From positions 1,088,001-1,152,000 of the forward strand of contig CAVSNY010000007.1 of assembly GCA_963729605.1 (NCBI GenBank): a stretch of DNA of 64,000 nt, given 5' to 3'. The stretch comes from an uncultured Gammaproteobacteria bacterium (GTDB lineage: Bacteria; Pseudomonadota; Gammaproteobacteria; DRLM01). Numbering within the stretch: the stretch's first letter is position 1; each line of letters opens with the position of its first letter. Under the pieces are notes generated by a model, which saw only the letters and a list, made by a program, of their open reading frames with translations, was not told where the DNA came from and did no database searches. Position numbers and translations under genes: made by a program. This document shows positions 15,897 through 21,373 of the stretch, piece after piece.

Positions 15897-17303
15897 ATGA
15901 ATCAGTCCGCCGTAAAAACCCGTTTCGCCCCCAGCCCGACCGGCTTGATCCACTTGGGCAATGTGCGCACCGCGCTGTTCAACGCCCTTTACGCCCGCCA
16001 CACCCGGGGGGTGTTTTTGCTGCGCATCGAGGACACCGATCTGGAGCGCAGCCGCGGCGAACACATCCTCGCCCTGATGGAGGACCTGCACTGGTTGGCC
16101 CTGGATTGGCAGGAAGGTCCCGAGGCCGACGACACCCACGGCCCCTATGCGCAATCCCAGCGCGGCGAAATTTATCAGCGCTATTTCTCGGTATTGGAAG
16201 AGCGGGGTTTGGCCTATCCCTGTTTCTGTTCGCCGCGGGAATTGGAGCTGTCGCGCAAGACCCAGCTGGCCGCCGGCCGCCCGCCGCGTTACGCGGGCAC
16301 CTGCGCGCGCTTGAACGCCGAGGAGCGGCAAAAGCGTTTGGATAAAGGGCTGCAACCCAACTTGCGATTCCGGGTGCCGGACGGCGACGTGGTCCGCTTC
16401 GACGATCTGGTGCGCGGACCGCAGGCCTTCGCCACCGGCGACATCGGCGACTTCGTGATCCGCCGCGCCGACGGCAACGCCGCCTTCTTTTTCAGCAACG
16501 CCCTCGATGATGCGCTGATGGAAGTGACGCACGTGCTGCGCGGCGAGGATCATCTCACCAATACCCCGCGGCAGATTTTGCTGCAACAGGCCCTGGGCCT
16601 GCACACGCCGCACTACGGCCACATCAGCATGATCGTCGGCGCCGACGGCGCGCCGCTTTCCAAGCGCACCGGCAGCCGCAGCGTGCGCGAGCTGCGCGAG
16701 GCCGGTTACCTGCCGCTGGCGGTGGTGAATTATCTGGCGCGGCTCGGCCACCATTACGAGAACAACGCCTATCTCGATCTGGATGGACTGGCCCGCGAGT
16801 TTGATCTCGGCAGACTCGGCCGCTCGCCGGCGCGCTACGACCCGACCCAACTCGATTATTATCAGCGCCAGGCGGTGCAGCACGCCGACGCGGACACCTT
16901 GTGGCAATGGATGGGCGAGCCGGTGCATGCGTTGGTGCCCGCCGCGCGGCGCGAGGAATTCGTCGCCGCGGTGCGCGGCAATATCGTGCTGCCGGGCGAG
17001 GCGCTGCATTGGGCGCGCATTCTTTTCGCGGAGACCCTGGAATTGCAGGACGAGGCGCAGGCGGTGGTGACGCAGGCCGGCGCTCAATTTTTCGCGGCGG
17101 CGGTCGCTGCCCTCGAGGCGCATCCCGCCGATTACGCGGCGATGGTCGAACAACTCAAACGCGGCAGCGGCGCCAAGGGCAAGGCCCTGTTCAAACCGCT
17201 GCGCGCGGCGCTCACCGGCGAAGTGGACGGGCCGGAGCTGGCGCCGTTGTTGTCATTGATCACCGCCGAGAAGGCACGGGCGCGCTTGGCGTATTGGGCA
17301 TGA
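15897..17303 (+). CDS. gltX: Glutamate--tRNA ligase (possibly a second GluRS paralogue)
   Basis: RFAPSPTG, HLGN, LRIEDTD, HVLRGEDH, PLSKR, PLRAALTG anticodon domain. Confidence 0.92.
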   Translation: MNQSAVKTRFAPSPTGLIHLGNVRTALFNALYARHTRGVFLLRIEDTDLERSRGEHILALMEDLHWLALDWQEGPEADDTHGPYAQSQRGEIYQRYFSVLEERGLAYPCFCSPRELELSRKTQLAAGRPPRYAGTCARLNAEERQKRLDKGLQPNLRFRVPDGDVVRFDDLVRGPQAFATGDIGDFVIRRADGNAAFFFSNALDDALMEVTHVLRGEDHLTNTPRQILLQQALGLHTPHYGHISMIVGADGAPLSKRTGSRSVRELREAGYLPLAVVNYLARLGHHYENNAYLDLDGLAREFDLGRLGRSPARYDPTQLDYYQRQAVQHADADTLWQWMGEPVHALVPAARREEFVAAVRGNIVLPGEALHWARILFAETLELQDEAQAVVTQAGAQFFAAAVAALEAHPADYAAMVEQLKRGSGAKGKALFKPLRAALTGEVDGPELAPLLSLITAEKARARLAYWA

Positions 17304-17308
17304 TAAAT

Positions 17309-17427
17309 GGAGTGGCTTGGCGCGGCGTAACCCGCCAAGCCGTCGCCGGAGGCGACGCCATGAATGCCATGAGTCACCTGCGGTGACACTGTCGGCGGGT
17401 CGCGGCCTTCGGCCTAACCCATCCTAC
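17309..17427. repeat. GTAG-type REP doublet (degenerate)
   Basis: cgtaacccgccaa and cctaacccatcctac arms similar to the copies at 24772 and 26840. Confidence 0.65.
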
Positions 17428-17446
17428 ATCGATAAACAATGACACT

Positions 17447-18934
17447 ATGCTGAAAATCCACAACAGCCTCACCAAGCAAAAAGAACCGTTCATGCCGCGC
17501 GTGCCCGGCAAGGTCGGCATGTACGTCTGCGGCATGACGGTCTACGACTACTGCCACGTCGGCCACGCGCGGGTGATGGTGGTGTTCGACGTGGTGGCGC
17601 GTTATCTCCGCGCCAGCGGTTACGACGTGACCTACGTGCGCAACATCACCGACATCGACGACAAGATCATCAAGCGCGCCGCCGAGAACGGCGAGACCAT
17701 GGCCGCGCTCACCGAGCGTTTTATCCAAGCCATGCATGAGGACAGCGCGGCGCTCGGCGTGCTGCCGCCCGATCACGAGCCGCGCGCCACGACCTCGATC
17801 GACGCGATCATCGATATGATCCAGTGCCTGGTCGAGCGCGGTTACGCCTATCACGCGAAGAACGGCGATGTCTATTACGACGTCAGCCGCTTCGAAAACT
17901 ACGGCGCGCTGTCCGGCAAGCGCGTCGAAGATTTGCGGGTCGGCGAACGGGTGGCGGTGGACGAGGCCAAGGACGATCCGCTCGACTTCGTGTTATGGAA
18001 GAGCGCCAAACCGGGCGAACCGAGTTGGCCATCGCCGTGGGGAGCGGGCCGGCCCGGCTGGCACATCGAATGTTCCGCCATGTCCACTCAATGTTTGGGC
18101 GACCACTTCGACATCCACGGCGGCGGCATGGATCTCATGTTCCCGCATCACGAAAACGAGATCGCGCAAAGCGAGGCCGCCACCGGCTGTCACTTCGTCA
18201 ATTACTGGATGCACAACGGCTTCGTGCAGATCAACGAAGAGAAGATGTCGAAGTCGCTGGGTAATTTCTTCACGGTGCGCGAGGTGCTCAAGCACTTAGA
18301 TCCAGACGATTCGTTACGTGCTGGTGAAATAATTCGTTATTTCATACTCCAAAGTCACTACCGCAGTCCTTTGAATTACTCAGAGGACAATCTACAGAAC
18401 GCAAAGAACAGTCTAACTAGGCTTTATAGATCTTTGCATCTCATAGGTGGGCTTTCTCCTAGCACAGATTTCACAGACGTGGAGCATGACTATCTGGCGC
18501 GTTTTCGAGCAGCTATGGATGATGACTTCAATACGCCGGAGGCATTGGCAGTCATCGCCAGTCTCGCGAACGAAGTTAACCGCGCAAAGGATGCTAATGA
18601 CCAAGAGAACGTCTTCAGGATGGTAGGCGCCTTGGTCGAAATGGGGAAATCGCTAGGCTTGCTTCAAAGAAAGCCAAAAGACTTTCTTAAGCTCACGACG
18701 ATTTCTCGATCATTTAGGTTTACCTGGAATAATGAAATTATAACTTCAGATGCATCGCGGCAAGACAATATTGTTGGGGCGGTGGATGCTCAAGTTAGTG
18801 AATTGGTGCTGCTTCGAGAGAAAGCCCGCAAGGAAAAGAACTGGGCCGAGTCCGATCGCATCCGCGACGAGTTGAAGGCCCAAGGCGTGATCTTGGAAGA
18901 CGGGCCGCAGGGCACGACCTGGCGGCGGGCTTAA
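17447..18934 (+). CDS. cysS: Cysteine--tRNA ligase
   Basis: [41 protein letters not shown]. Confidence 0.97.
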
Positions 18935-19137
18935 ACGGTTCGCGCGAGTCATGCCGCCATTTCGTACTCGCGCTTTTATAGCTCCCAGTGCTAGGTGCTT
19001 TTTTAGTCGGCGTGTAAGCTTGTTTACATCCTCACTCAGCGTGACGGAACGGCCGGCGACCCCGGCCGTTCGTTTGCGGGCTACTGGTACTGGGTCGCCG
19101 TAAAAAATTAAAACGTGATTGACATTGCCGCCGTCCT

Positions 19138-19455
19138 CACCACCCCGCCCCTGCGGGGCACCCCTCCTCAAAGAGGAGGGGAAAAAGATTTATATCTCCC
19201 GCGCTGGGCGGGGCTGAAGCGGCCGTTGACCGCTTCCTCAAAGAGGAGGGGAAAAGATTTATATTTCCCCTCCTTCGCGCTGGGCGGGGCTGAAGCGGCC
19301 GTTGACCGCCTCCTCAAAGAGGAAGGGAAAAAGATTTATATTTCCCCTCCTTTCCAAGGAGGGGTGGACGCGAAGCGGACGGGGTGGTTACGCCTTTCCA
19401 AGGAGGGGTGGACGCGAAGCGGACGGGGTGGTTACGTCTTTCCAAGGAGGGAAGG
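19138..19455. repeat. Palindromic element pair with internal tandem amplifications
   Basis: Three copies of cctcaaagaggaggggaaaaagatttatat separated by identical linkers, then 2.3 copies of a 42-bp unit cctttccaaggaggggtggacgcgaagcggacggggtggttacg. Confidence 0.85.
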
Positions 19456-19603
19456 ATCTATGTATGGTGGGCAGGGTGGTGACTTTTTGCAGGCGGGATG
19501 CGATAGATCGACGGCATCTTGATTCCCCGCGTGAGCTTGGATAACGCGGTTTTAGTAGACACGGAATTTTTAAACAATAACGCAAACCGAGGTTGACGCC
19601 ATC

Positions 19604-21373
19604 ATGGCTTGGGAAGCATGGCTTACGCTGAGTGTGATCGCCTTCTGCCTGTGGGCGCTGGTCACTAACCGTCTCGCGCCCGATGTGATTTTGGTGGGCG
19701 GGGTGATGGTGCTGATGCTCGCCAAGGTCATCACGCCGCAGCAGGCGCTGGCCGGTATGTCCAACGAGGGTATGATTACCGTGGGGCTGCTCTACATCGT
19801 CGCCGCCGGTTTACAGGAGACCGGTGTCGTGCAATGGCTGGGCGGCGCGCTGCTTGGCAAGCCGCGTTCCGTGGCGCACGCGCAAGTCCGGCTCATGGCG
19901 CCGGTGGCGATCATGAGCGCCTTTCTCAACAACACGCCGCTGGTGGCGATGATGATCCCGGCGGTGCGCGACTGGGCCAAGAAATATCAGATATCGCCTT
20001 CCAAGCCGATGATGCCGCTGAGCTACGCCGCCATCATCGGCGGCACCTGCACCTTGATCGGCACCAGCACCAACCTGGTCGTGAACGGTCTCTGGATCAA
20101 GGAGACCGGCGGCGACAACCTCGGCATGTTCGAGATCGCCTGGGTGGGCATCCCGGGCGTGATCGTGGTGATCGCCATGGTGCTGTTGCTCAGCCGCTGG
20201 GCCCTGCCCGATCGGCAATCGGCCATCAGCAAATTGGACAACGCCCGCAATTACATCGTGGAGATGATCGTCGAACCGGGCAGTCCGCTGCACGGCAAGA
20301 CCATCGAACAAGCCGGGCTGCGTCACTTGCCGGGCATGTACCTCATCGAGATCGAGCGCAACGGCCACAGCCTGCCGGCGGTCTCGCCCCAGGAGCGGCT
20401 GGCGGAGCATGATCGGTTGATCTTCGCCGGCGTGGTGGAGTCGGTGGTGGATCTGCACAAATTCCGCGGCCTGCAGCCGGCCACCGATCAGGTGTTCAAA
20501 CTCGACTCGCCGCGCAGCGAACGCTGCCTGGTCGAGGCGGTGGTCTCCGACAGTTGCCCGCTGGTGGGCAAGACCATCCGCGAGGGACGCTTTCGCACCG
20601 CTTATAACGCGGCGGTGATTGCCGTGGCGCGCAACGGCGAGCGCATTCAGCAGAAGATCGGCGACATCGAGCTGCGTCCCGGCGATACCTTGTTGTTGGA
20701 AGCGAACTCGTCCTTCGCCGCGCAGCAGCGCAATTCGCGCGATTTCTTTCTGGTGAGCCAGGTGGAGGATTCCACGCCGCCGCGTCACGACAAGGCCAAG
20801 ATCGCGCTCGCCATCCTGTTCGCCATGGTCTCGGCCGCCACCGCCGGCTGGCTCAGCATGCTCGAGGCGGCGATGATCGCCGCCGGCTTGATGGTGGTGA
20901 CAAAATGCATAGGCCTGACCGGCGCGCGGCGCAGCGTAGATTGGCAGGTGCTGATCGTCATCGCCGCCTCGTTCGGTTTGGGTACCGCGCTGGAGGTGAC
21001 CGGCGCCGCCACGGTCATCGCCCAGCAGGTGATCGCGCTCGCGGCGGGCGACGCCTGGCTTACGCTGTTATTCACCTTCGTCATCACCGCGGTGTTCACC
21101 GCGCTCATCACCAACAACGCGGCGGCGGTGCTGATGTTCCCCATTGTGATGCAGGCGGCCGAGACGCTGGCGGTGAGCCCGTTGCCGTTCGTCTTTACGT
21201 TGATGATCGCCGCCTCGGCGAGTTTCGCCACGCCCATCGGTTATCAGACCAATCTCATGGTCTACGGGCCGGGCGGTTATCGCTTCAGCGATTATTTCAA
21301 GATGGGCATTCCCATCACCCTCATGAAAGGCATCATCACGGTTATTATCGCGCCGTTGGTGTGGCAGTTTTGA
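19604..21373 (+). CDS. SLC13/DASS family permease with TrkA-C domains
   Basis: SAFLNNTP, GGTCTLIGTSTNL, two RCK-C repeats, ASASFATPIGYQTN. Confidence 0.9.
   Translation: MAWEAWLTLSVIAFCLWALVTNRLAPDVILVGGVMVLMLAKVITPQQALAGMSNEGMITVGLLYIVAAGLQETGVVQWLGGALLGKPRSVAHAQVRLMAPVAIMSAFLNNTPLVAMMIPAVRDWAKKYQISPSKPMMPLSYAAIIGGTCTLIGTSTNLVVNGLWIKETGGDNLGMFEIAWVGIPGVIVVIAMVLLLSRWALPDRQSAISKLDNARNYIVEMIVEPGSPLHGKTIEQAGLRHLPGMYLIEIERNGHSLPAVSPQERLAEHDRLIFAGVVESVVDLHKFRGLQPATDQVFKLDSPRSERCLVEAVVSDSCPLVGKTIREGRFRTAYNAAVIAVARNGERIQQKIGDIELRPGDTLLLEANSSFAAQQRNSRDFFLVSQVEDSTPPRHDKAKIALAILFAMVSAATAGWLSMLEAAMIAAGLMVVTKCIGLTGARRSVDWQVLIVIAASFGLGTALEVTGAATVIAQQVIALAAGDAWLTLLFTFVITAVFTALITNNAAAVLMFPIVMQAAETLAVSPLPFVFTLMIAASASFATPIGYQTNLMVYGPGGYRFSDYFKMGIPITLMKGIITVIIAPLVWQF

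Follow-up and report, generated by a model that had tools for sequence, protein, structure and literature searches.

A sharply bounded, AT-rich patch in the cysteinyl-tRNA synthetase gene of an uncultured gammaproteobacterium and its probable origin by recombination

The cysS gene and its deviant patch

The window analyzed here is a stretch of 64,000 nucleotides from the genome of an uncultured gammaproteobacterium, the assembly of which amounts to 3.48 Mb in seven contigs, is 94.5% complete, and is perhaps metagenome-assembled. We refer to this genome as G000, to the genomes of relatives by further G numbers, and use the letters L for loci (L002–L009 being cysS loci of relatives), P for database proteins, and X for contigs from sequencing runs. 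The gene of interest encodes a cysteinyl-tRNA synthetase (CysRS): residues 1–494 align with residues 1–460 of the solved CysRS 1LI5/1U0B (E 6.5e-162), the signature motifs HVGH and KMSKS are kept at 37–40 and 266–270, and C28, C209, H234, and E238, which we take to be the zinc ligands of the enzyme, are invariant columns in an alignment of 62 sequences. It is the single match in the 94.5% complete assembly, and cysS was matched in 30 of the 31 genomes searched, G000 counted; most relatives have one full-length match, the extras being fragments into which the gene was split or weak matches to other proteins. The features discussed below are as follows.

17447–18934, + strand: cysS, cysteinyl-tRNA synthetase; an open reading frame of 495 codons plus stop, matching E. 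coli CysRS
17447–18295, + strand: native 5' part, codons 1–283, with the catalytic core through KMSKS and a conserved 11-residue block; third-position G+C (GC3) 0.85, family residues kept
18296–18823, + strand: the patch, codons 284–459, probably a replaced tract; GC3 0.44, hyperdivergent, both junctions bridged by contigs X1 and X5
18299–18325, + strand: short insert region, DPDDSLRAG, with seven extra residues in comparison with all relatives in the alignments
18692–18787, + strand: long linker insert, approximately residues 416–447, TTISRSF...DNIVGAV; a gap relative to E. coli CysRS after its residue ~403
18824–18934, + strand: native 3' tail, codons 460–495 plus stop, starting just before a conserved 14-residue block; GC3 0.86
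19159–19470, no strand assigned: intergenic repeat array of tandem units of 70–76 nt and 44 nt with internal inverted repeats; context only, outside the mosaic, and the "adjacent palindromic element" of the original prediction

The edges of the patch were set with a two-changepoint likelihood scan of GC3 over the 495 codons, and the changepoints fall at nt 18296 and 18823, delimiting 528 bp in which GC3 is 0.44 in comparison with 0.85 elsewhere in the gene. The switch in third positions that was originally predicted from the letters alone is thus real, its proposed limits of 18295–18822 are correct to within one base, and, as also claimed, the frame stays open and the quoted motifs are present. 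The shift is not confined to third positions: total G+C drops from ~0.64 to 0.43–0.50 between about 18200 and 18800, ranging within the patch from 0.38 to 0.53 in 20-codon windows, and the first and second codon positions are shifted toward AT as well. The window has 32 likely genes that reach 200 codons, and the lowest 40-codon GC3 minimum among them is that of cysS (0.33; the next is 0.50); a chance effect is excluded.

[quoted passage not shown] An AlphaFold model built on the 62-sequence alignment (mean pLDDT 88, pTM 0.82) predicts most of the patch as confident helices, with pLDDT ~90–98; the loop at 331–343 is weaker, the 10-residue block 331–340 having a mean pLDDT of 76. The short insert would form the loop between predicted helices 277–284 and 289–301 (mean pLDDT 92 for the block 281–290). 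Among 98 aligned CysRS sequences, its seven residues are present only in G000 and in a second carrier of the patch, P0001, and in the distant P0056, this loop contains an insert that is not related to it. The long insert, the most AT-rich part of the patch (GC3 0.33–0.43), sits in the linker preceding the C-terminal domain and is poorly predicted: pLDDT is below 50 at 419–424 and 433–445 and mostly so across 419–445, with a weak predicted hairpin at 423–434. Both inserts noted originally are real in comparison with E. coli CysRS, but the long one is not novel. Linker inserts of ~15–25 residues are found in seven of nine family relatives (L002–L004 and L006–L009), which makes the G000 insert a longer version of a family feature rather than a new insertion. 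A weak imperfect palindrome lies within it (window positions 18741–18797; 73% over ~57–60 nt, E 0.017).

Native flanks, saturated patch, and independent contigs

The contrast between the patch and its flanks is stark. In comparison with the same-genus loci L002–L004, amino acid identity is 92–96% in the N part (residues 1–283) and 81–92% in the tail (460–495) but 40–42% in the patch, and across 19 relatives, from the same genus to the same class, the N part declines from 96 to 66% while the patch stays flat at 35–48%. At the nucleotide level, identity in the patch is that of random sequence, 0.46–0.48. The dN and dS values are 0.026 and 0.42 for the N part against L002 and 0.06 and 0.49 for the tail against L004, dS outside the patch being 0.4–0.6 in general; for the patch against L002, dN is 0.73 and dS is saturated. 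Accordingly, the comparison of dN/dS with relatives, proposed originally as a check, confines both the jump in dN and the saturation of dS to the patch, and where residues are identical, the agreement of their synonymous codons is ~0.8 in the flanks but ~0.3 inside. Up to and including codon 283, and once more from codon 460 on, the DNA of G000 follows L003 and L004 almost base by base. The patch was absent from all three same-genus species representatives, which bears on the original concern that relatives might share it at ordinary divergence. The neighboring GltX is 97% identical to that of G003 and 91% identical to that of G001, which identifies these genomes as close relatives and the cysS patch as the anomaly.

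Conserved positions tell the same story. All 227 family-fixed columns of the N part and all 29 of the tail are kept, whereas the patch core loses 20 of 68; likewise, the N part keeps 17 of 17 family-specific residues. A family-signature test within the patch had only five informative columns, of which one has the family state, one the common outgroup state, and three another state. The second half of the gene is variable elsewhere in the genus, too: in the control pair L002/L003, codon agreement is ordinary to about residue 320–370 and saturated only beyond. G000 stands apart in that the replaced tract begins ~90 codons earlier, right after KMSKS. The cysS gene of the closest relative, G003 (locus L002), is itself mosaic: it has AT-ending codons at ~272–284, just before the left junction of G000, and beyond about codon 361, its GC3 is low and its dS high up to the stop. 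The tail of G000 is nearer to L004 than to L002, though its N part is nearest to L002.

Sequencing runs of 12 studies contain part of the stretch, none of them perfectly (the best share of sampled words is 0.69). We compared four runs from four studies, the assembled contigs of which inform on presence and linkage and carry no frequencies. A 2,770-nt contig from a wetland, X1, covers 18198–18930 with eight differences in 733 nt and is 99% identical across the whole patch. A 1,526-nt contig from a bioreactor, X5, covers 17643–19150 with 55 differences and three gaps in 1,508 nt and has the substitutions H283Y, L336V, S337P, and A374V that distinguish P0001. The latter protein, encoded on another contig, has the same architecture as G000 and is 94% identical to it in the patch, with 16 substitutions overall: the two differ at 6 of 283 residues in the N part, 10 of 176 in the patch, and none of 36 in the tail. 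Finally, a 931-nt freshwater contig, X9, matches 18206–18291 with two differences and 18824–19150 with 13 differences, and between the two matching parts, it has ~499 unlike bases; X9 is from a close relative with a different cysS allele between the same breakpoints.

These contigs bear directly on the trivial explanation that a metagenome assembly produced the patch by joining DNA of another organism to cysS at conserved words. The state of the assembly, with its seven contigs, its incompleteness, and its perhaps metagenomic origin, would allow such an artifact, and the breakpoints do abut conserved blocks. However, X1 and X5, from two other studies, bridge both junctions, P0001 repeats the architecture with substitutions of its own, and no organism with a matching complete cysS was found in the databases searched. 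We therefore regard a chimeric assembly, against which the original prediction had asked for a check of the junctions, as hardly credible.

AT-rich cassettes in the family and in other synthetases

The linker shows a further pattern within the family. For 33 family sequences, consisting of 10 loci and of 23 proteins that among the 120 matches listed have an N part at least 80% identical to that of G000, we compared the linker (residues 395–459) and found its identity to be bimodal: the linkers are either identical or ~35–50% identical between strains whose N parts are identical. Examples of such pairs, with identities of the N part and the linker, are given below.

L008 and P0003: N part 1.00, linker 0.34
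P0002 and P0043: N part 1.00, linker 0.50
P0025 and P0119: N part 0.97, linker 0.36
P0073 and P0076: N part 0.96, linker 1.00
L004 and P0005: N part 0.95, linker 0.97

Gradual fast evolution would not yield such identities, and they point to the exchange of discrete cassettes. Taken with the codon-sharp junctions, the native flanks, the saturated dS inside, and the alternative allele of X9, they favor the in-frame replacement that was one of the two mechanisms proposed originally. We consider it probable that cysS of G000 is a mosaic gene in which a 528-bp in-frame tract has been replaced through recombination with a very divergent and AT-richer allele. The recombination would have swapped codons 284–459 and left the frame intact, with crossovers at the edges of the two best-conserved blocks flanking the variable half, the 11-residue block on the left and the 14-residue block on the right. 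The right breakpoint falls inside the predicted helix 442–462, off any domain border, which fits breakpoints set by DNA similarity and not by protein architecture. The event may then be a long instance of a family-wide exchange of AT-rich, mutually divergent linker cassettes among near-identical strains. Since the chimeric CysRS is the sole copy found and keeps the invariant catalytic and structural residues, the enzyme is presumably functional.

The deviation is not unique to cysS. The original claim that no other core gene looks like this stands for the 64-kb window, where 32 genes were compared by 40-codon GC3, but fails genome-wide, as leuS, valS, dnaN, clpA, and dnaG dip as well. The genome scan covered 1,543 nonoverlapping coding-like open reading frames obtained with a crude stop-to-stop filter, in which junk frames remained; the real genes were picked by eye and then with Pfam. 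The lowest 40-codon minima include those of leuS (0.23) and cysS (0.33), followed by valS (0.42) and, at 0.35–0.45, by dnaN, clpA, dnaG, and several defense-type genes; the dips of leuS and valS are comparable to that of cysS but shorter. The genes and their deviant segments are the following.

leuS, G000:C2:345071-347755 (locus L106:1072-3756): AT-rich, insert-bearing cassette at residues ~362–450
valS, G000:C6:229936-232875 (locus L114): AT-rich in-frame insert of ~30 residues at residues ~326–356, in the editing-domain region
dnaN, G000:C7:116456-117553: a 40-codon stretch of GC3 0.35–0.45 in comparison with ~0.7–0.75 elsewhere
clpA, G000:C3:295553-297829: a 40-codon stretch of GC3 0.35–0.45 in comparison with ~0.7–0.75 elsewhere
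dnaG, G000:C7:452043-453803: a 40-codon stretch of GC3 0.35–0.45 in comparison with ~0.7–0.75 elsewhere

In the leuS loop, G000, G003, and G008 each have a different AT-rich cassette (GC3 0.29–0.47), and G001, G002, and G005 have a short form of ordinary GC3; G001 has the short form even though its leuS flanks are 97% identical to those of G000. The nearest sequences to the G000 leuS cassette, P0272–P0274, are 53–60% identical to it, with flanks of only 59–79% identity. The valS insert (GC3 0.2–0.5) is missing from G001, G002, and G005, and G008 has a different one. Judged by their sequences, leuS and valS of G000 appear to carry the same kind of cassette as cysS, polymorphic among close relatives. 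Three synthetases are thus apparently affected, a pattern noticed post hoc in a crude scan that lacked a control gene set. The segments of the three genes show no mutual similarity, and no other copies of them were found in G000.

Simple import alone does not account for the AT-richness found in every cassette, whichever relative and whichever of the three genes is considered, and a systematic cause is needed: the pool from which the cassettes come may be AT-rich, or their composition may have decayed locally where GC-biased conversion does not act. The latter leads to an alternative account of the composition, in which the low GC3 is kept locally and was not inherited from a donor; the divergence could still stem from replacement. 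Either cassettes too divergent for heteroduplex formation escape GC-biased gene conversion and drift to the AT-biased mutational equilibrium, or rare AT-ending codons are selected at domain linkers. Every cassette is indeed AT-rich, whatever its sequence: GC3 is 0.22–0.50 in the cysS linkers of seven relatives, and the ranges in leuS and valS are similarly low. Moreover, the study from which the hypothesis of GC-biased conversion is taken reports, in its available text, a positive link between recombination and the GC content of genes in bacteria (PMC4450053). Local maintenance would, however, leave the amino acid divergence and the sharp edges unexplained, and the AT shift extends to the first and second codon positions; as an account of the low GC3, we consider it rather unlikely.

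Origin and meaning of the probable mosaic

If the patch was replaced through recombination, its donor should be sought, and we searched five collections, in which no sequence other than that of the second carrier came closer than 57%. Among 5.8 billion proteins, with the best 8,000 word-sharing candidates scored, P0001 was the only close match, the rest reaching at most 57% and mostly over ~69% of the patch. An exhaustive HMMER search of 1.84 billion cluster representatives gave no matches at E <1e-30 and no close free-standing fragment, with the reservation that this library is collapsed at 50% identity and may conceal a donor within a cluster. The genomes of ~185,000 species gave 48–52% at best, scattered over Gamma- and Betaproteobacteria, and identity was at most 42% in phages and at most 47% in plasmids. 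Mobile cysS genes do exist: cysS is annotated on Salmonella and Citrobacter plasmids and in jumbo phages (an Acinetobacter phage and Sinorhizobium phage Phosso), none of these being close to the patch. Plasmid records matching the patch number 599 and include 501 from Klebsiella. Within G000 itself, blastn (word size 7) and tblastn searches of the 3.48-Mb assembly for a template copy, a check suggested at the outset, found the self match only.

The separate phylogenies of the flank and the patch, likewise suggested, differ. The tree of the N part places G000 inside its own genus, with paths of 0.057–0.062 to the two nearest same-genus orthologs, whereas in the tree of the patch core (284–405), G000 and P0001 form an isolated pair, the stem of which measures 0.88 substitutions per site against a median branch of 0.14. 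The patch has residues that are rare or absent elsewhere, and together with the long stem, this makes it unlike the ordinary CysRS of any lineage sampled so far; the source of the allele would be an unsampled lineage, a fast-evolving one, or one that is both. The resolution of these trees is poor, with 11 of 95 branches starred in the 98-row patch tree. A 36-row tree pairs the patch with a long-branched Steroidobacteraceae sequence (SH-aLRT 88), a pairing that we do not trust. An AU test of 102 columns and 36 rows does not reject placement of the patch core within the own genus (lnL difference 10.8, p 0.258). The missing donor, the AU test, and the long stem all count against replacement, and the word "foreign" in the original prediction goes further than these results do.

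The same observations can be enlisted for an in situ burst of accelerated, AT-biased evolution, through hypermutation or diversifying selection, acting on a genus-type sequence with no foreign DNA involved. The long stem with some unique residues, the lack of a donor in any database searched, the unrejected genus placement, and the position of the patch linker insert at the same site as the family inserts would all fit. Such a burst needs both dN and dS to rise more than 10-fold within codon-sharp limits, however, in a genome without a template repeat, and the family cassette identities would be graded rather than bimodal. Nor is anything of the kind ongoing: the modest differences between the two carriers, 10 of 176 residues in the patch and 6 of 283 in the N part, and the 99% identity of X1 indicate that the patch evolves roughly like a less constrained domain and does not hypermutate. 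The localized hypermutation offered originally as the second mechanism is, as a continuing process, not supported by these figures, and we find an in situ burst in the past very unlikely. Replacement by an external allele, our preferred reading, has a difficulty of its own. A nucleotide divergence of more than 50% would have left ordinary RecA-dependent recombination with the original donor little homology for the first entry of the allele.

The drivers proposed together with these mechanisms, evasion of a toxin or phage factor and repeated cutting near the adjacent palindromic element, found no support. The repeat array downstream belongs to a dispersed family with 56 blastn matches on four G000 contigs, and in X9, which has the other allele, the match continues past the stop codon for 216 nt of the spacer, to 19150. 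An origin of the patch from the array was rejected, the array being dispersed and having no demonstrated link to the patch, and an Rfam search of 17000–19700 on either strand gave no match. As to the substrates of the enzymes, ARAGORN and Infernal found 40 solid tRNAs in G000 but not tRNA-Cys(GCA), tRNA-Leu(TAA), or a credible tRNA-Gly(GCC). The genes for tRNA-Cys, tRNA-Leu, and tRNA-Gly are clustered in E. coli, and one assembly gap probably explains all three absences; it deserves mention that the cognate tRNA of the mosaic CysRS is itself unassembled.

Several known systems invite comparison. Mosaic genes formed through intragenic recombination are familiar from the penicillin-binding protein genes of Streptococcus and Neisseria, and like these, the cysS block is sharp-edged, far more divergent than its flanks, located in an essential native gene, and represented by patchy alleles among strains. 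In the penicillin-binding protein genes, however, the donors are identifiable sister species at ~5–25% nucleotide divergence, and the selective agent is an antibiotic, whereas the cysS block is at random nucleotide identity and has neither a sampled donor nor a known selective agent. Prophages e14 and 21 integrate into the icd gene of E. coli and replace its 3' end next to the phage DNA; there, too, a divergent copy takes the place of a segment of a housekeeping gene, in frame and with icd function kept, but in cysS, native sequence resumes for the final 36 codons and extends at least 216 nt into the spacer beyond them. Incidentally, no integrase gene or mobile element was noticed beside the patch. 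A 3'-end replacement by a prophage or island was rejected on these grounds: the patch stops before the native codons 460–495, and the sequence to 19150 is common to the X9 strain. In Rickettsia, the copies of a family of palindromic repeats have inserted in frame into genes for essential proteins, at positions on the protein surface, and G000 resembles that case in having extra in-frame peptide segments in several genes of one genome. An element of the Rickettsia type was rejected as well, the segments of cysS, leuS, and valS being mutually unlike and without other genomic copies. Targets of diversity-generating retroelements share with the patch a sharply bounded hypervariable coding stretch with the frame kept; unlike them, the patch is a 528-nt tract in a cytoplasmic enzyme and not in a ligand-binding domain. 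Such a target, too, was rejected, blastn and tblastn having found no template repeat in the assembly.

The closest published concept is that of segmentally variable genes, defined in the accessible part of the source as genes in which a variable region of 70 residues or more accompanies a conserved core, with aminoacyl-tRNA synthetases named and ProRS given as an example (Zheng, Roberts and Kasif 2004, PMC387263). The cysS gene likewise combines a conserved core and a variable region, but the concept, as far as that part of the source goes, compares distant species and comes without within-species cassette exchange, compositional deviation, or codon-sharp breakpoints. Mosaic genes and the inclusion of synthetases among segmentally variable genes are thus already known (PMC387263, accessible part). 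In the portions of the literature open to our search, we found no account of bacterial synthetases in which cassettes of deviant composition are exchanged within species.

Genes essential to translation generally serve as markers of vertical descent, and here, about one-third of cysS has a separate history. The divergence of the patch is where ordinary homologous recombination should barely work, and related strains swap the linker cassette freely. In practice, phylogenies and strain typing in this group cannot safely rely on cysS, leuS, or valS unless their cassettes have been masked. A bolder proposal, to which we give a slim chance, is that CysRS, LeuRS, and ValRS of the family carry surface-loop cassettes kept as deeply divergent, exchangeable alleles within species. 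If that were true, frequency-dependent selection by an intracellular binder of synthetases, for example, a phage protein or a toxin, would be expected; phage T4 modifies the ValRS of its host. The AT-richness would then be a by-product, and the cassettes would offer a natural within-gene test of GC-biased conversion in bacteria. More generally, if the polymorphism is selected, it marks synthetase surfaces that are recognized by something in the cell or in its phages; if it is neutral, AT-rich, nonrecombining cassettes in GC-rich genes bear on the upkeep of bacterial GC content.
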